From: Octopus vulgaris
Lineage: Eukaryota
Direction of reading: 5' to 3'
Length of the DNA: 64,000 bases
Assembly: GCA_951406725.2 (NCBI GenBank)
Contig: OX597830.1
Coordinates: 496,001 to 560,000, forward strand
Positions 4,001 through 62,183 of the stretch are shown here, in pieces. Both the position numbers and the translations under genes were made by a program. The stretch's first letter is position 1, and each line of letters opens with the position of its first letter. The notes below the pieces were generated by a model. It had not been told where the DNA came from, did not search any database, and saw only the letters and a list, made by a program, of their open reading frames with translations.

Positions 4001-4429
4001 TCAACCACGACAACTTCCTCTTAAAATGGATATTGCACTGGTGTATTACGAGTCTGCTTTCTTCAGATATTATATCCATAACTGTGGTTTTCTCTTTTCA
4101 TGTGGTGATGTTTTTAATTTCTTTTTAAAATATACGTTTACGTTTTTCTTGCTCGCTTAGCTCTTTGTATATTTTGTTTTTAATATTTACCATCAGCTCT
4201 CCTGTTTAACCTTTCAGCCTGTCCTTTGGTGAGATCAAGCCGTTTAACGTTGGCTGTGACCTTGTTGATACATATTCTGGACGAGACACATTGTTTTGTA
4301 AAATGAAGCTGTTGCGTTGTCACAGTTTTCCTTAGGCAACAGAATACAGTGTCCTTCAGCTTCTTGCAAAGCCTGGCTATGGCTAAGTCGTGTGTTGAAA
4401 CAGATATTGTTGAATTTCGGAATGGTCAT
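1002..4429 (-). pseudogene. PLE polyprotein (N-terminal domain, RT, thumb) broken by stops and frameshifts
   Basis: ORFs 3453-4079, 1607-3385, 1278-1466 and 1002-1265 are collinear. Motifs: PTDKSGRM, LYGLRKDHK..PPTRPVCGA, SMDVVSLYPSID, YAQDEGAAIGVSIAGDVANLFM, YSRYVDD, (by hand) IDYPTKHPNH*LPVLD, YAKPMAS, FSGY, PLYR, VLFVDTTPGG. Frameshifts at ~3495 (T-run) and ~1620; stops at ~1505, ~1552 and ~1278. Confidence 0.9.
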
Positions 4430-4803
4430 TTTGCCAGTTTAGCCAATAAAGACACACGCACTATATATTTGGTGTTACTTTGCTTCAGTGTTATTTATTT
4501 TTTACATTAAAATTAATCTTATTTCGGTCAGAGTTCTTTCATCACACTCCTGTGACCGCATCAGTGGTCCTTTGCTTTCTTCTTTCTTATTTGTGTCTCT
4601 CCTTACTAACCGTCGGCGATTTTGTATTTCTATTGTATGTGACTTCATTTGCGCATGCGTATATCGCTATGCGCGTCTATGTTTAGTTAGTGTGTGTGGG
4701 GTGGGGAAATGCCTGTAATATTTGTATCTTCTGTTTATATACGTTCGTGTAATTTGTTTTTTGTTTTTGTTTATTCTTATTTTGTTCATGTGTTTACATC
4801 CAA
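4360..4803 (-). repeat. 5' pseudo-LTR (copy B)
   Basis: Direct repeat of 340-800; ORF-track peptides at 468-674 and 4480-4686 are almost identical. Confidence 0.9.
4528..4567 (-). ncRNA. Hammerhead motif, pLTR B (two substitutions)
   Basis: Same motif, with TGG->TGA in stem I and GAC->GAT in stem II. Confidence 0.6.
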
Positions 4804-4811
4804 TAATAATA

Positions 4812-5205
4812 AGTGGATGTAACCACATGAACAAAATAAGAATAAACAAAAACAAAAAGCAAATTACATGAACGTATATAAACAGAAGAAAGAAATATTA
4901 CAGGCATCCCCCACACACACACTAACTAAACATAGACGCACATAGAGATATACGCATGCGCAAATGAAGACACATACCATAGAAATACAAAATGGCTGAC
5001 GGTTAGTAAGGAGAGACACAAATAAGAAAGAAAGCAAAGTACCACTGATGCGGTCACAGGAGTGTGACGAAAGAACTCTGGCCGAAATAAGAAAATAAGT
5101 TTAATGTAAAAAATAAATATCACTGAAGCAAAGTAACACCAAATATACAGTGCGTGTGTTTTTATTGGCTAAACTGGCAAAATGACTATTCCGAAATACA
5201 ACAAT
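4812..5205 (+). repeat. Inverted pseudo-LTR (copy C)
   Basis: Reverse complement of copy B. The junction acatcca-ataataataag-tggatgt makes a ~400-bp-arm palindrome. Confidence 0.9.
5042..5081 (+). ncRNA. Hammerhead motif, pLTR C
   Basis: ccactgatgcggtcacaggagtgtgacgaaagaactctgg; predicted cut after C5078. Confidence 0.7.
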
Positions 5206-5222
5206 ATATATATATATATATA

Positions 5223-10384: not shown

Positions 10385-11395
10385 TATATATACCCCAAAC
10401 ATAAAAACACAAAGAGAAAACACAACACGAGGACGTGGAACAAATATAGTATTATTGGACGCTTAGGAAGGAAGGGAAGAAGGAGGGTTTAACGTTTCGA
10501 GCGGAGCTCTTCGTCGGAAACATAGGAGAAGGAAAGATCCAGAGAAGGGAAGACAGAAGAAAAAAATCGCAAACGGTACACACGCGGTCACATTTTGAAT
10601 CTGTGTGGACCCGTGGAAAAACACGCAAAGTTTGAGGCGGCGCAGGAACTGGTTGACGTCGGTCCGGGTCTCAAATTCGACACAGTGGCGCGTGAGATTC
10701 GTGAAGCGGAGTCCCTTACTGAGGAGAGAGCGGTCGGCAGGGGAGAGGAGGAGATTGGGGGTTTTAGTGACAACAGTGCGAGGAAGCAGGGTGGTGGGAT
10801 GAGTGGGGTCAGGAAGAGGGGGTGCAGAGGTGTGGGGAGGAGAGTTGGAATAGTTGGGTGAAGATGGGGTAAGCGTAGGAAGGTCAGGGTGGGGTGTGTG
10901 TGGGTCTGTGGAGGGTGCAGGGGAGAAGGGGGAGTGTCAGATTGGAGGGAGTCGGGGGAGCTGGAGGGGAAGATGTAGGGGATGGGGAGGGGAAGGAGGT
11001 GAAGGGTTGAGGAGGTGGTGGAGTTTTTTGCTTTTTGTTGTGTGTGAGGAAATTGTGGAGTTGGTGGTTGAGATTAAGAATGAAGCGGAGAATGGGTTGG
11101 GTGAAAAGTGGAGGGCAGAGGGAGGAGAGAGGGAGGTAAACCTGGGGAAGTTGGTGGTCAAGAGAGTGAAGGAGAGCGCGGGTGGAACGGATGGTGGCAC
11201 GGACGAGGATGCGGGAAGTGCGGGCGAGGGTGGGTTCGATGAGAGGGGAGGAATAGGGGGTGGCGTGGAACTTCAAGAGGAAGCCACGGGGTGTGACGTG
11301 ATGGCGGAGGCAACGGCTAAGAAAGGAGAGATGGCTAGAGTGGCGAGTTTTTTTAAAAAGCAAGCATTGGGAGGGAGCAAGAAAACGGCAAAGTT
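10385..11395 (-). mobile_element. Internally deleted PLE (N-terminal domain only, plus pLTR with HHR)
   Basis: ORF 10884-11363 has HLSFLSRCLRHHVTPRGFLLKF. By hand, LSKGLRF...DVNQFLRRLKLCVFF at ~10720-10615 is the usual pre-RT motif, followed directly by the pLTR. No RT or EN. Confidence 0.75.
10487..10521 (-). ncRNA. Minimal type I HHR (U4->C variant), palindromic stem III
   Basis: GTTT-CCGACGA-A-GAGC(TCC)GCTC-GAA-ACGT-T-AAAC. Confidence 0.7.
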
Positions 11396-12028
11396 AGATT
11401 GGGACTGTGGCAATGTCCGCTGCCGTAGACATCGATATATCTTCTGTGGGTTGTATGGACTTTGCTCTTTTCGTGGGTGGTAGGAAAGTTTGTGGTGCGT
11501 TGGGTTGGCTGTGTTGGAATCTGTTGGTGTGTTTTCTATGTCTGGGGGTGGCTTATGTCTCTTGCACCCATTAGGCAGGAGGCTTTGAGGTGAGCTTTTT
11601 GCTCACTTCGGTAGCACTTGGGTCATCGCCTTTCCACCATCACGTGCAGTATTGTGCCATCTGTTATGTTTATCAAGTCTGGTATATGTTTTAGGTCCTC
11701 CGGTTTACTTCAATTAGCAACTCTGTCCCCTGGCCCCAATCAGTTCTATTGGTGCTGTTTGGTATTTTGTAATATGTTTATTTTGTCCTCAATGTGAAGC
11801 AGGACAGCTACCAGCACCCATAAGCCGTCAATCACTGGAGGGCACGTCCCCAATTTCAACTTTTGAGTCACTTCGACAACCCAGGTAGGTCGACAGGAGC
11901 ACCATCTAGTTCGCTTTCAGGGACATTGTGAAGTGTTCTTTGGATTCGTCTTCCGAAGCGAGCCTCACCTTCACAGTGCCATATTTTTCCTCTCTGGCCA
12001 CGTATTTGATCCTTGACCATAATGGTTG
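11393..12028 (-). repeat. ~630-bp duplicate of 14527-15160 (gag-like ORF1 fragment)
   Basis: Near-identical direct repeat starting ttagattgggactgtggcaatgtccg. Confidence 0.9.
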
Positions 12029-12071
<43 letters not shown>

Positions 12072-13524: not shown

Positions 13525-13549
<25 letters not shown>

Positions 13550-13562
<13 letters not shown>

Positions 13563-14200
13563 CAATATAAGGAATGGCCATAATAGGCCATTCGACTCAC
13601 TAGAAAGAGCAGCCAAACTCAAGCCGCTAAATAGTTGTAATTCTGAAATTGAAAGAGAAATAAAAACAGTTACCCTTTTCATCTCTGGACTAGCGGAGAA
13701 TTTTTTCTAGAATTTTTTTGCTACTTTTATAGTTATTAATTAATGATTTTTTGGCTAATTTTGAAATTAAATCAGCAGTTTATATGTGTTGCTGAGAAGA
13801 CCGCGCAGTGGCGGTGGATTTTGAAAATTTAGAGCATATAGACTGGATGCTTCTTTGCCGTCGCCTCGTGGACATATACTCGTCCTCGGCTTCTCTGCTG
13901 ACGAGACACGCCAGTTGTAAATAAATTTAATTTAATTTAATTAATTTGTTTACAAAAGTTTGTCGAAACTATGCATAGTCCAGAGATGAAAAGGGTAAAT
14001 GTTTTTATTTCTCTTTCAATTTCAGAATTACAACTATTTAGCAGTTTGAGTTTGGCTGCTCTTTCTAGTGAGTCGAATGGCCTATTATGGCCATTCTCTA
14101 TATTGTTGAATGTATATTATATAGTCTTTGACTATCTTTCCTCTTTCACTAGACCGCTGGTAGCGGAGAATTTTTTTGCTACCCTTATATTTATTAATAT
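13550..14200 (+). mobile_element. Non-coding PLE-pLTR/retrozyme-like unit (~470 bp, terminally redundant) with inverted partial copy
   Basis: 13550-13692 is the reverse complement of 13976-14118. tagcggagaatttttt...gctac occurs at both 13691 and 14161. (TA)n on both sides. Confidence 0.8.
13892..13986 (+). ncRNA. Type I hammerhead ribozyme, intact core, long stem II
   Basis: TCTCTG-CTGACGA-GACA..(52 nt, AT-rich hairpin)..TGTC-GAA-ACTATGCATAGT-C-CAGAGA; GUC cleavage after 13980. Confidence 0.9.
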
Positions 14201-14224
14201 ATATATAAATATATATATATAATA

Positions 14225-15640
14225 ATGGCTGTGAGGTTTGTGAGTGTGTATTTAAGGTGCGGAGCCGGTATTTAGCTGATGGTGTAGATAGTGTGGGTGT
14301 GAGTGAAGATGGTTGTGTGCCTGTGTTGCAGGGGGGTGTTGGGTGGAGTCTTTTTTTTTTCTTTTGGGCATTGCACTCCATTCGTCAGTTGTCAGTAGGG
14401 TCCAAGTCAGTGGGAGGTAAATCCTTTGGGTTTTGGGTGTCTTCTATTGAAGTGGTTTTGGTTGGTATACTGGCTGGCTGTGTAGAATGCGAAGCTTCCT
14501 CAATGGGTGGTACAATAATTTCTAATATTAGATTGGGACTGTGGCAATGTCCGCTGCCGTAGACATCGATATATCTTCTGTGGGTTGTATGGACTTTGCT
14601 CTTTCCGTGGGTGGTAGGAAAGTTTGTGGTGCGTTGGGTTGGCTGTGATGGAATCTGTTGGTGTGTTTTCTATGTCTGGGGGTGGCTTATGTCTCTTGCA
14701 CCCATTAGGCAGGAGGCTTTGAGGTGAGCTTTTTGCTCACTTCGGTAGCACTTGGGTCATCGCCTTTCCACCATCACGTGCAGTATTGTGCCATCTGTTA
14801 TGTTTATCAAGTCTGGTATATGTTTTAGGTCCTCCGGTTTACTTCAATTAGCAACTCTGTCCCCTGGCCCCAATCAGTTCTATTGGTGCTGTTTGGTATT
14901 TTGTAATATGTTTATTTTGTCCTCAATGTGAAGCAGAACAGCTACCAGCACCCATAAGCCGTCAATCACTGGAGTGCACGTCCCCAATTTCAACTTTTGA
15001 GTCACTTCGACAACCCAGGTAGGTCGGCAGGAGCACCATCTAGTTCGCTTTTAGGGACACTGTGAAGTGTTCTTTGAATTCGTCTTCCGAAGCGAACCGC
15101 ACCTTCACAGTGCCATATTTTCCCCTCTGGCCACGTATCTGATCCTTGACCAAAGTGGTTGCCAGCAATTTTCAATAGTTTCTGTTGCTACTTGGTCAAT
15201 CTTGTTTTGTTTGGGTGGCAGAGTTTTGTAAATCATCGTTTGTCGTGCTGTGGCGCTGTTGTTTTCAACGTCAAAATTGAGTGATTCTGGTTGCACTCGC
15301 GCTGCTGATGCGAAACCGCGACTGCTTCGTTTAAATTCATCTTTCTTGAGTTCCTTAATTTTGTTGTTCGGAGTGTCCTTGAAAGTATTCCTTGTATTTC
15401 TTTTGGGGGAGTAGATCATTCCCCGCCTCCCACTCGCAGCAGGGAGAGAAGGAAACAGTTCGTTGTACACTTCATCTTGGTGGGCGTAACCCTCAACGAG
15501 GCTGGAAGCCATGATTGAAAAATTAATTGCGTAGCAAAAATACCAATAAACGGAAGTAAAATTCGCTCCTAAAAGGGGCCATTTTAGATGCGACACCACC
15601 CCTCCCTGATAAGCAGTTTCAGTTACGAGGTTGCACAAAA
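14225..15640 (-). mobile_element. Gag-like ORF1 of an L1/Tx1-type element, decayed
   Basis: ORF 15105-15638 continues through frameshifts to GTVKVRFASEDE and to PKCYRSEQKAHLKASC (degenerate CCHC knuckle at ~14745-14705). Confidence 0.6.
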
Positions 15641-15734: not shown

Positions 15735-17468
15735 TTTATTGGCCACTAAGGGCTACATATTGAGGGACAATGCAGGGCAGACAAGGTGAGGTCGTACGCA
15801 GGTACGGCAACAAAGAGAAAAGTCGAATTAATTAACAAAGGTGACAGTTTAAAAATTGAAAATGTTACAACAAAATGAGAATAACACAATGAGAAAAACA
15901 GGATGTAGTGGTAGGGATTCGTGCTCAACTTAGACACATCCATACGTAACAGGCGTGCCATTTGCATCCATCTAGTCACAAATATGCGCGACGGCACTTA
16001 CTTTCTCTCTCTCTCTTTCTCTAGCCTTAGTTTCCTTTTCGGGTTGTCGATGTAATAATTGCTTAAACCGATGCCAAAGAGAAAGTTTCCCGTTCTCAAT
16101 CCTTTCACTCGCGTCAACCACACAGCCTCTTTCGCTATAGCCACCAAGCAGAGAAAACGTGCCAGCCTTTCCCGGTTAAAGGATGGGCGGTGGAACAATC
16201 CCAATGATAGACCCAGTGACAACTGGGCTCCTCCCAGACGTGACAACAGGTGTTCTATATAAACCCATAGGTCCGAAATGAATGTATACCGTACGACAGC
16301 GTTCGGAACGGTTTCATCACTTTACTCGCATCTCGAGCATGTCCGTGTGACTTTTGTACCTGAAGAGCTTGTCTCGAATAGGCAATGCCCTTCGATAGAA
16401 ATGACAGGCCAGGAATTTCTGGTAGTTGTCCATGGGCCTCGGCCCGAAAATCCTTCGGAACAGACTGGCAAGTCGACCGTCATCAAAGCCCAGGGTTTCC
16501 CTGGGAAGTCATCGCACTTGCCGACCACTAACCCTCTATAGAAAGACGAGGTGGAACCTCCACCGCACACATTGCCCGCTCGACAGAGAAACGTTAGAGC
16601 CTGACAGCACTCTAGGCCTGCGCTTGATCAATGAGTTCAGCTCGCTAAAAGAAGCGAACTGTGAGTTCGCTTTGAGTTGAGTTTGATGAAAGGTGACCAC
16701 ACCTGTTCACCGTCTAGGCAGATCTGGATATGCCTCAGCCTACGCGCATGTCTGTGCATTTTTAGATAAGGCATGCCCAGCCCTGATTTTAGCGGCAGTT
16801 GAAAGTAGATAGAGCCTCTGACCAGTGGACCCGTCCTTTCCACAGAAAGCCGAAGAGTAAGCGCTCCAACTTGGCCAGACACGAATTCAGATAATGCACG
16901 GCAATAAGGCAACTCTACCGGCCCTTTCAGGGATAGCTTCCTCTCAGTCCCTCTGTATCTGTAGGTCTGCTCCGAACCAGATCGCGAGGAATTTCACCGG
17001 GCCGTCCGTCCATCGTCCCACGATGTTAAGTAGTAACGACCTGTCTCTCCAGGTGCCGAGTTGCAGGCCGACCGACTTTTCACAGTTAATTTTTGCTCCC
17101 TTCACCACCTCGAAATCATTTATGGCCCCACCTATAATTGTGGGTGCTTGTCACAAGATGCAATGAATTGTGATGTCGTCCGCATATGCTGACACTGTCC
17201 TCTCGCACCCCAGGTCACGCGGGATGCCTCTCGAAGACTCTATTTTCTGCAGTAATGGCTTAAGGACCAGAACGCACAGGAGAGAGGAGAGAAGGCATCT
17301 TTGGCAGACCGAGCACGCAATGTAGAACGGCTCTGATAGATAACCATCCACCCAAACTTTCGATTGAATGTTGCTGTATAAAGCGGTGATCCAGCCGCAG
17401 AAAGTTGGGCCAAATCCGGTCGCTTCGAGAACTGTTGCCAGAGACCGTGCAACAACTGCGTTCTCGTC

Positions 17469-17516
<48 letters not shown>

Positions 17517-17830
17517 CAAGGGATAGACGGGAAAGCCTCTTTGTAACAACCAGATAAGGGGTCGCAATCTTCCTTCAGCTTTGCTTCCATGTTATGGAAA
17601 GTAATTTGCGCGTCGAAAAAAAATGTTTTGTTTTCATCAGACTTATGGAGAGACAATTCTCCCCCAAATGGGCGAACATTCTCGGTTTGGTGAAACTTCA
17701 ACCGCCAGACGGGCTCACTTTCAAAAGGAGTAAGAGTACAAGAATTTTTACAAGTTTCAACGAAGTAATACAAAGCACAAAATAACATGTCCGTTCGCAA
17801 GAAATTGGCGAAGCCTCATACGTCGTCTAA
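15735..17830 (-). mobile_element. L1/Tx1-clade LINE, ORF2 RT and C-terminal fragment, decayed
   Basis: GFGPTFCGWITALYS, SVCQRCLLSSLLC (QGCPLSPLL-like), VSAYADDITI, GLGMP, CSRCE, AKEAVW; AATAAA near 15737. Confidence 0.8.
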
Positions 17831-20999: not shown

Positions 21000-21930
21000 C
21001 ATTCATAATTCTATATCAAAAATTAAAAATTTTCAAAGTTCTAACTGACAAGTAATTCTTATCACCACTTCAACATAGCTGGTCCGTTGGAACCGAGATT
21101 AATACCAATTTTAACCACAGAAGGAGACCTTCTCCAGCTGGTTGTCGATGCAATCTGCACCCATACGTATTGGAAATAGGAGAGCGAATCTGTACTATCT
21201 TCTAGCGACAACGATGAAGCTTCCAAATCGTCCGGTTTCAAAGCTATTTCTACTCCTCCTCAATGGTAGATAACCGTCCGCTCGAGGCAGCAGTAGTTCG
21301 CTCCAGTTCGCAATATATAGACAAATAAGTGACAACTCATCACTGATCTTGGAATAAGTAAAGTAGCTAGTTTCAAAATTTCTATAAGAGATGAAAGTTG
21401 TAACTCTATCGAGAGGTAATCTTTATCGCCACTTCAACATGGCTGTTCCAAAGGAACAGAAGTTATTACCATTTTAAACCCCATGATGAGTTCTCCAGCT
21501 GGTTATCGACGCAGTCTACAGCTGATATATGTTTCAAGCAGTGGAGCGAAGCCCTACCATCTTCTACCGATGATGACGGGACCACCAGACCATCTGGTTT
21601 CGTGCTATCTCTAACGGAGGATGTCGACTACTGAAGATAGCTCGAAACCCGACAGTCTGGTGGTCCTGTTGTCGTTGCTAGAACATGTTATGGGTTCGTT
21701 CCGCTGCTTGCAGCATATATCAGCTGTAGATTGCGTCGATAACCAGCTGGAGAACTCATCCTGGGGTTTAAAATGGTAATAACTTCTGTTCCTTTGGAAC
21801 AGCAATATGTAGGCCGTAGATTGCATCGATAACCGGTTGGAGGAGGCCTCTTCCTGGGGCTAAAACTGGTAGTAATGTCTTTTCCTACGGAAGAACCATG
21901 TTGAAGTGGCGATAAGCATTACTTCTCAGA
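21000..21930. repeat. Decayed ~365-bp tandem unit (two direct copies, two inverted partial copies) with HHR relics
   Basis: cttatcaccacttcaacatagctg (21058) recurs as tttatcgccacttcaacatggctg (21422); inverted copies at ~21632-21810 and ~21815-21927. Confidence 0.8.
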
Positions 21931-61284: not shown

Positions 61285-62183
61285 AGGGATCGATTCCATC
61301 TCAATCATAGATATTTTAATTAATTTTTAAAACTAAACTGTTTGAAACTTTGATTACTGTTAGAATTTCTCACGTAGAACGCGGTTTACTCTGAACGGCT
61401 TTGACAAAATTTCGTATTTTAGAAGTTATTTCGTGTTAAAGTTGTCGTATTTGGGTAATTTTAACCAATCAACGACGTGTGTTCGGTTGAAGAAAGCTAC
61501 TGCTGTTTGCGTTAGTAATCGAAGAGGAACAACTTCGGGGTCATCTTTATTAAATATAACTACTCCGTTATATTTGTATGTTGTGCGAAGACGATGCCAC
61601 ATTTATCCTTTCTTCCTTTCTAGTCAACACCGTGCATTCCTTAGTCTTTTCTTCCGTTCTACAATATCAACTAGCAACCAGCGCGCAAACTTGTCACTGC
61701 CACTACAATTACCATATTTTCCGGTGTATAATCTGCTTCATGTTTTGATCATGTTATTTTTTTTATCTAATAAAGACTTTTATATTGACGAAATGTGTTG
61801 ATTATAGTAAGATAAAATCATGACAATAACAATACATCTCATAGTTGTAAAATAAAGCATTTTGAAACTACATATACGTCAACAAAAAAAGGTAGCTGCG
61901 GATTCGTGGTAACATTTAGTAGAGATGACCTGGAAGTTGTTTCTCCTCGATTACTATCGCAAACAGCAGAAGCTTTCTTTAACTGAATACACGTCGTTGA
62001 TTGGTTGAAATTACCCAAATACGACAACTTTAACACGAAATAACTTCTAAAATACGAAATTTTGCCAAAACCGTTCAGAGTAAATCGTGTTCTACGTGAG
62101 AAAGTCTACCAGTAATCGAAGTTTCAAATTGTATATTAAAAAAAATTAAATAAAAAATCTGTGACTGAGATGGAAGAGATCCG
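61285..62183. mobile_element. MITE-like element with ~280-bp TIRs
   Basis: 61285-61565 is the reverse complement of ~61905-62183; ORF-track peptides MLKLSYLGNFNQSTTC appear on both strands. Confidence 0.85.

Follow-up and report, generated by a model that had tools for sequence, protein, structure and literature searches.

A long-stem-II hammerhead repeat of Octopus vulgaris resembles non-LTR retrozymes and is probably copied by Penelope-like elements

The described systems closest to the repeat reported here are the metazoan non-LTR retrozymes, a class that is already known, and the Hydra clade of C-terminal EN+ Penelope-like elements (PLEs). As far as the available parts of Cervera and de la Pena 2020 (PMC7229834) and of a preprint (Li et al., bioRxiv 10.64898/2026.07.22.740005) describe them, non-LTR retrozymes are non-coding, low-GC units with one type I hammerhead each, which occur as monomers, dimers and multimers, have a strongly self-paired monomer and coexist with autonomous PLEs. 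Their stem II is canonical, with 4 bp and a loop, and their stem III has 1–2 bp and a tetraloop. The preprint derives retrozymes from PLE terminal repeats, mainly in vertebrates. PLEs are proposed as the mobiliser in both texts, and in these parts of the two sources no retrozyme–PLE pair has been reconstituted. Hydra-clade PLEs, in the accessible portions of Craig et al. 2021 (PMC8557442), target (TA)n and show 5′ truncation, partial tandems, an inverted truncated copy and discrete alternative 3′ ends, and they carry a type I hammerhead with a palindromic stem III; the in vivo cutting of PLE hammerheads is called unclear there. The minimal and dimeric PLE hammerheads of Cervera and de la Pena 2014 (PMC4209133), in the sections at hand, use a palindromic helix III as a dimer device, have a larger-than-usual helix II and occur in close inverted pairs.

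The window analysed here is a stretch of 64,000 nt from Octopus vulgaris, whose microsatellite-rich genome comprises 2.8 Gb in 227 contigs. A type I hammerhead had been predicted at 13892–13986 of the window, and all elements of that motif were found where the original prediction placed them. On the forward strand, the 5′ strand of stem I (13883–13897) runs from a distal part of 4 bp (13883–13886) through the internal-loop strand CGGCT (13887–13891) to the proximal TCTCTG (13892–13897). It leads into the 5′ half of the catalytic core, CUGACGA (13898–13904), a two-part stem II of 60 nt (13905–13964), GAA (13965–13967), a stem III that is a perfect 12-nt palindrome (13968–13979), and C17 (13980), after which cleavage is predicted. 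The 3′ strand of stem I (13981–13995) consists of the proximal CAGAGA (13981–13986), an internal loop and the distal strand (13992–13995). CUGANGA, GAAA and NUH are all present, helix I is open and helices II and III are closed, so the claim of an intact core stands, and the topology is that of a type I hammerhead. Three features had been missed: the pairing of 13883–13886 with 13992–13995, which prolongs stem I beyond its internal loop; the division of stem II into a 4-bp base closed by GACA/TGTC, an internal loop containing GCCA (13910–13913) and an AT-rich hairpin (13915–13955); and the position of the 3′ end of the motif within one arm of a 142-nt inverted repeat that is itself part of the insertion.

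It had been proposed to repeat the motif search with a relaxed stem II length. A descriptor scan of the whole window (stem II ≤100 nt) recovers this site as its one match, and the same descriptor has no match in 300 first-order Markov resamplings of the window; with stem I set to 3, 4 or 6 bp the outcome was the same. The 121-nt region folds with z = −2.78, and 2 of 200 shuffles fold equally well. No Rfam family reaches its gathering score in the window, and at E ≤ 10 the search returns microRNA-like noise only and no hammerhead. The Rfam hammerhead models have no match in 10 other loci either, six of which are natural short-stem-II deletion copies, and these models are insensitive to the long-stem-II group. 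The long stem II had been expected to defeat length-limited searches; the motif is indeed missed by Rfam, but the miss need not be due to stem II length, the short-stem-II deletion copies being missed too.

The motif lies in a repeat with many genomic copies. A genome search with a 161-nt query gave 967 first-look candidates, and the 40 that were scored yielded 48 matches, 47 of them at 94–100% identity. Genome-wide, the exact long-stem-II pattern (spacer of 41–70 nt) has 468 matches against none in the control, the same pattern with a 10–40-nt spacer has eight, which we read as putative internal deletions, and a 16-mer from stem III has 744 (control 1). A wider superfamily, captured by a pattern of shared hairpin apex and 3′ half-core, comprises 4,341 matches, some double-counted, against 8 in controls. 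A descriptor with a 41–70-nt spacer has 7,406 matches against 814 in controls, part of them of a different, short-stem architecture, and matches of this kind suggest that hammerhead counts in some animal genomes are too low. A loose pattern (1,856 matches, control 127) was discarded, being mostly unrelated repeats; 4 of the 20 loci fetched with it are family members.

Sequence shared among 30 compared loci is limited to a few hundred bases, with no flank or open reading frame (ORF) in common, and in 68 loci there is no linked ORF, that is, no reverse transcriptase and GIY-YIG frame between terminal repeats as an autonomous PLE would have. PLE fragments near L014/L021, L052 and L058 are separate insertions. 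In L010 and L021 two hammerheads stand 470 nt apart, which closes the unit head-to-tail, and the closed unit holds no ORF remnant. The non-coding unit has one type I hammerhead, and tandem periods are 470 nt in L010, 474 nt in L234, 478 nt in L061 and 493 nt in L222; at least two complete hammerheads occur in tandem in the L010 dimer and in the nine-unit array of L222, a related subfamily. A profile built from 65 copies extends to more distant subfamilies, which it matches over the whole unit (E down to 1e-84), with periods of 474–494 nt and arrays of up to nine units. Pieces of the unit also turn up in contigs assembled from seven putative RNA runs, under four organism labels; these contigs show no ends, strand or level, their back-joints of 463–467 nt are expected from genomic tandems, and they carry no weight either way.

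The repeat resembles the metazoan non-LTR retrozymes in its non-coding, low-GC unit with a single type I hammerhead, in forming monomers, dimers and multimers, and in coexisting with autonomous PLEs. At 470–495 nt the unit is longer than the 170–400 nt given in the available text of PMC7229834 and lies within the range of 51–972 in that of the preprint. Monomer GC content is 0.34–0.37 (34–37%). A strongly self-paired monomer is a further likeness: in four units (L010, L234, L061 and L222) 59–65% is paired as circles, and the circular folds have z = −3.0 to −7.0 (25 shuffles each), but the antisense strands of the same four fold as strongly (z = −3.6 to −7.3), which counts against this reading. 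No LTR pair is seen, and the element ends are variable. The two-part stem II of 44–68 nt and the 12-nt palindromic stem III differ from the short stems of the described retrozymes. Most copies are dispersed, 5′-truncated and partly inverted, again unlike those retrozymes. By its sequence features the repeat would work like a metazoan non-LTR retrozyme, and we are highly confident that it is an element of retrozyme type. The original prediction had pointed to PLEs and retrozymes as a setting of type I hammerheads, a reading that the repeat context and the retention of the core in homologous copies bear out.

To examine conservation of the ribozyme we aligned 43 of 77 long-stem copies, leaving out near-identical ones. 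Two-sided changes occur in 4 of 5 stem I pairs, 2 of 4 pairs of the stem II base and 3 of 6 pairs of the distal hairpin, and 92.5% of cells pair, compared with 25–43% when the partners are slid. The covariation score, which is inflated by the relatedness of the copies, is reached by none of 500 shuffles. The consensus fold from RNAalifold contains stem I, the distal hairpin and stem III but lacks the stem II base. Among 16 subfamily representatives the core columns are 98% identical pairwise against 68% elsewhere, a comparison biased by the fact that the representatives were partly chosen on core motifs. In a comparison freer of this bias, the 5′ half-core is present in 12 of 14 loci found without requiring it, two of the 12 being a U4C variant, and H17 is C or A among the representatives. 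Stem II ranges from 44 to 68 nt across copies. One intact Hydra-type family (L117:3467, 6330) and two retrozyme subfamilies (L227, L229) are fixed for the U4C variant of the core (CCGANGA).

Partial precedents for the long stem II are found in the available rows of PMC8557442. Hydra hammerheads in its File S2 have a stem II of 10–22 nt (16 of 62 "ctgatga" places and the Hydra-1_oBim row), whereas the hammerhead of PLE-X1_sMoe in the same file has one of 52 nt. The "HHR_half_core" cases of Files S1 and S2 are spaced by 35–50 nt in eight Naiads, so that the core halves stand far apart, as here. PLE-X1_sMoe, PLE-X1_sTam and the Naiad cases belong to other clades and hosts than the repeat, and neither a two-part stem II nor pairing with loop 1 is described in those PLE-X1 and Naiad rows. 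The accessible part of PMC10085705 has no bearing on the long-stem-II motif.

In stem II the hairpin is set off from the 4-bp base by an internal loop, which thereby occupies the usual place of loop 2. The GCCA in this loop is complementary to UGGC in the stem I internal loop (loop 1), and the candidate GG/CC pairing is 87% paired in the 43-copy alignment. The outer pair varies between U-A, U-G and C-G. In one clade (L205, L230, L232–L234) AGGU stands with ACCU, a double change, and L230 compared with L205 adds a fifth compensated pair. One pair is a C-A mismatch in the window's own subfamily, and the 43-copy alignment holds no two-sided change in the pseudoknot. A shuffle test on 32 clusters, with the anchor absent from 10 of 108 sequences, found 65 of 128 flanking pairs to be Watson–Crick against 59.6 in shuffles, with 663 of 10,000 shuffles as high; on 25 distinct combinations 858 of 10,000 were as high, giving p of about 0.07–0.09 overall, which is not significant. 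Loop-loop pseudoknots occur in other hammerheads. Docking of GCCA on UGGC, to which these sequences give an even chance, would involve 3–6 Watson–Crick pairs and replace the usual loop-loop contact. A search for a published pseudoknot of such kind in type I motifs found none, and brought up one unrelated paper.

Stem III keeps all six pairs, with G-U allowed, in 103 of 108 distinct copies and is mismatched in the other 5, where 77 of the 108 carry the 12-mer used as search key. Position 3/10 takes all four Watson–Crick pairs and position 4/9 also changes, with the palindrome retained. In one subfamily the central TGCA has become TATA at the innermost pair, a single event, and a related subfamily has the mismatched TACA; as the innermost pair is impossible in a hairpin, the change to TATA points to pairing between two molecules. 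The computed energy of the monomer stem III hairpin is +0.4 kcal/mol and that of the intermolecular duplex −15.9. The active monomer fold lies 2.1 above the minimum and makes up about 1% of the ensemble, because the core can pair with the GUC triplet, in a model that tertiary contacts lie outside of. From these calculations it seems somewhat probable that a dimer is needed or preferred for cleavage. Dimer-dependent type I hammerheads are described in the available parts of PMC4209133 and PMC7229834. The palindromic helix III, the enlarged helix II and the close inverted pairs are shared with the hammerheads of PMC4209133, where, in the sections at hand, helix II has 6–8 bp and helix III is missing or tiny; both are long here, and a 4-bp stem III is possible in the monomer.

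The copy in the window is typical of the family, with (TA)15, an inverted arm, a forward copy of more than one unit and (TA)n. The (TA)15 microsatellite at its left end (13528–13557) is the target, and a target-site duplication is unreadable in (TA)n. An inverted, 5′-truncated second copy follows on the reverse strand (13558–13692), and spans the unit from a point 3–5 nt ahead of the cut site as far as the first 3′ end, which lies about 130–143 nt after the cut; BLAST reaches 13544 via TA-like sequence. The forward copy (13691–14198) has 508 nt, more than the 470 nt of one unit; it begins at unit position 181 and passes through the hammerhead, the only one in this copy, to the second 3′ end at unit position ~230. 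Immediately upstream of the first 3′ end is an 8-bp hairpin (14075–14096, forward strand) that is kept across subfamilies and has a conjectural role, and (TA)n closes the insertion on the right (14199–14221). Outside the ribozyme, pairing is kept across subfamilies, as judged by eye, in at least four more hairpins. Among them is one directly upstream of each 3′ end, and all are candidate protein-binding or initiation signals.

We compared 92 segments whose likeness to the unit is 80% or more, leaving out 23 more distant segments and 10 duplicate loci. Their 3′ ends lie near unit position 143 in 36 cases and at 220–239 after the cut in 31, (TA)n follows the 3′ end in 71, and the 5′ ends are scattered over the entire unit. 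Inverted arms are common, and their length and presence differ from copy to copy. Twenty-two segments are longer than one unit, which requires a tandem or a circular template, the two being indistinguishable from genomic copies. With 5′ truncation, partial tandems, an inverted truncated copy and alternative 3′ ends, these are insertions of Penelope type, in agreement with the PLE insertion anatomy in the available text of PMC8557442, and the (TA)n targets, type I hammerhead and palindromic stem III are likewise those of its Hydra clade. Here some 90 nt separate the two 3′ ends, versus a 30–40-nt tail in the Hydra PLEs of that text. The two ends are comparable to the two internal initiation sites described in the accessible part of PMC11167929.

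For the cut site we tested a single bond fixed beforehand. The bond is reached by 158 copies, of which 150 keep C17 and 8 do not. Two of the 8 are C-to-T arms of one insertion, five are exact joins at the bond (one to (TA)n, two inversions and two to distant unit positions) and the sixth event is a short deletion ending there. The background, from the first 60 of the 150 copies, is 49 breaks in 10,599 nt (0.0046 per nt), and the number expected at the cut bond is 0.58 in 158 copies against 5–6 observed (Poisson P = 3.5e-4 for 5). Over the 10 nt upstream, the break rate matches the background (3 breaks in 580 nt), and a control bond 2 bases downstream has 3 junction matches from 2 events. The excess consists of 5–6 events and includes three head-to-tail junctions that are possibly later deletions, and arms of one insertion are not independent. 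About 96% of copies run through the bond. On the simplest reading, reverse transcriptase would sometimes have reached the end of cleaved RNA, and we hold it likely that the hammerhead cleaves in vivo. The junction excess would be a genomic read-out of such cutting that can be scaled genome-wide.

A reverse transcriptase fragment beside L021 was taken as the lead to the PLEs of this genome and gave 150 scored matches, many in open frames of 780–1,090 codons. A Naiad-like assignment of the fragment was rejected, its intact relatives having a C-terminal endonuclease and Hydra motifs. Hydra-type open frames of 778–1,091 codons occur in intact, near-identical copies (L099–L118, for example L099:3796–6747); given these and the long-stem-II hammerheads, several of the families look recently active. 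Their proteins have a reverse transcriptase followed by a C-terminal GIY-YIG, with DKT, RW(K/R/A/L), CxxC and CxH and no CCHH. The CxCX5C linker is found in three families, and the proteins of L099, L105 and L107 match the Hydra diagnostics given in the accessible portions of PMC8557442, so that on sequence motifs these three are assigned to the Hydra clade; the families of L110, L111 and L113 lack the linker. In Pfam, six Hydra-type proteins have no significant match to any family. Of 20 loci selected because their Hydra-type ORF is intact, 19 carry a type I hammerhead whose stem II measures 47–60 nt, and stem III is palindromic in most of the families. Twenty-six Hydra-type motifs are followed by a microsatellite no more than 700 nt away; all of them end in (TA)n, and the 3′ ends are mostly at two discrete distances per family, 70–150 nt apart.

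Neptune-like elements (DKG, CX4CXXC, CCHH) have CA-rich 3′ ends and, in 5 of 20 loci, a stem II of 12 nt; in their remaining loci no hammerhead was found, bar one unlinked motif. In the window itself, a fragment of a Neptune-like PLE ORF (10463–11400, reverse strand) has at its end a minimal hammerhead (10488–10520, reverse strand) with a CCGACGA core, a 12-nt stem II and a palindromic stem III of 4 nt. The same minimal motif is found in L245, L253, L255 and L256, and the genome has many open Neptune-like frames of 800–1,060 codons.

Searches of 70 Hydra-type, 20 Neptune-like and 20 loose-pattern loci with BLASTN, tBLASTN and nhmmer found no autonomous element sharing sequence with the unit, and profile searches of the 70 Hydra-type and 20 Neptune-like loci met the repeat only as separate insertions. 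The tandem in L119 was considered as the terminal repeat of an adjacent ORF and rejected; it lies upstream of a decayed Hydra-type ORF and, as that ORF has no matching 3′ repeat, is read as a separate insertion. Unlike Hydra-clade PLEs, the repeat has no ORF and no detectable homology to the sampled Hydra terminal repeats. Because no sequence is shared with the unit, the link to Hydra elements rests on shared anatomy and target, on which a Hydra-clade PLE is a reasonably plausible mobilising partner, favoured to a modest degree.

The account that we consider probable as a whole is that of a self-cutting type I hammerhead retrozyme copied by Hydra-clade PLE enzymes into (TA)n. Tandem copies would be transcribed and the RNA cut after C13980, probably in a dimer that the palindromic stem III holds together, releasing monomers of about 470 nt between two ribozymes. 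By analogy with the retrozymes in the available text of PMC7229834, a host ligase would circularise the monomers; we take the formation of circular RNA to be moderately likely. Two AT-rich sites, some 140 and 230 nt beyond the cut, may serve as internal starts of reverse transcription, as in the described part of PMC11167929, and the reverse transcriptase and GIY-YIG endonuclease of Hydra-clade PLEs would insert the copies into (TA)n tracts. Where the cut bond is read through on uncut or religated RNA, copies of more than one unit would result, such as that in the window. A more far-reaching version, which we regard as doubtful, is that Hydra PLEs and their retrozyme parasites share a hammerhead architecture missed by standard models, with a long two-part stem II whose internal loop docks on loop 1 by a 4–6-bp Watson–Crick pseudoknot, and two-copy cleavage via the 12-bp palindrome, and that thousands of them yield abundant circles of 470–495 nt copied by an intact Hydra enzyme. 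Were this version true, it would give the first retrozyme–PLE pair open to reconstitution, with genomic junctions recording in vivo cleavage. The question of the mobiliser is testable in this genome, where young copies of the retrozyme coexist with intact Hydra-type ORFs that match them in target and in the anatomy of the ribozyme.

A different Penelope clade, such as Naiad, Poseidon or one outside the sample, could instead move the same retrozyme and ribozyme, or the repeat could be the orphan terminal repeat of an extinct autonomous element. This would fit the lack of shared sequence between the unit and any sampled Hydra-type terminal repeat, as well as a sampling of two clades, Hydra-type and Neptune-like; according to the available text of PMC8557442, Naiads too prefer (TA)n, and their insertions include inverted and tandem structures. 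We nonetheless hold it to be unlikely, since it is the intact Hydra-type families that share the long stem II, the palindromic stem III, the U4C variant, the two widely spaced 3′ ends and the (TA)n ends, while cephalopod Naiads are reported as remnants in the same text, and an orphan repeat fits poorly with a unit that closes head-to-tail without an ORF remnant.

It is more improbable still that the hammerhead is a protein-recognition element or a processing-poor relic, cutting rarely, with read-through transcripts from tandem arrays as the templates and with no circles. Kept catalytic nucleotides across subfamilies only 68% alike elsewhere, an H17 that stays C or A, and an excess of breaks of single-base precision with background immediately upstream all argue for cleavage, against which have to be set the traversal of the cut bond in about 96% of copies, the ~1% share of the active monomer fold and the existence of U4C-core subfamilies. 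In the accessible part of the preprint (bioRxiv 10.64898/2026.07.22.740005), moreover, nine predicted Xenopus retrozyme dimers were tested and eight showed no cleavage in vitro, and the anole PLE of PMC11167929, in the portion available, does not require cleavage for in vitro insertion and gave no reads ending at the cut. The 142-nt inverted arms of the window copy might also suggest a MITE-like DNA element with terminal inverted repeats and a chance hammerhead. Fixed terminal inverted repeats and fixed ends are not what the family shows, with arms varying in length and presence, scattered 5′ ends and tandem units, and with a motif that is absent from 300 resamplings and has covarying stems; a DNA transposon is for these reasons highly improbable. 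The retrozyme copied by Hydra-clade enzymes remains our preferred reading.

What is new here is the long-stem-II ribozyme architecture, its presence both in retrozymes and in intact Hydra-type elements, and the cut-site trace. A literature search, in which subscription papers and supplements were barely covered, found neither a description of the 470-nt family nor one of any hammerhead with a long stem II from octopus or other cephalopods, and judged from published papers the family may be unannotated.

Further hammerhead-like repeats were seen in the genome. A second, unrelated tandem family (L212, also L184, L185, L190, L220, L221 and L225) has a period of 594 nt in 4 units, a stem II of 60–70 nt and an 8-nt palindromic stem III, and additional long-stem families are represented by L213/L214, L216 and L217. 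A very common repeat (L179, L181–L183, L189, L191, L200, L203 and L204) combines CUGAAGA, a short G-rich stem and a later GAAAC, and permits no ordinary type I fold. In the window, a 636-nt duplication that is 97.6% identical and looks like a decayed retroelement flanks the insertion region (11394–12029 and 14528–15162), and a reverse transcriptase fragment on the reverse strand at 17151–17591 (Pfam RVT_1, E 2e-6, below cut-off) is split by a (GA)n run. Other long inverted repeats, with arms of 112–277 nt, lie at 21045–21929, at 61287–62182 and at 4404–5207 with 568–693, and may be inverted insertions of PLE type. Within the first of these a CCGATGA...GAAAC-like string begins at 21567.
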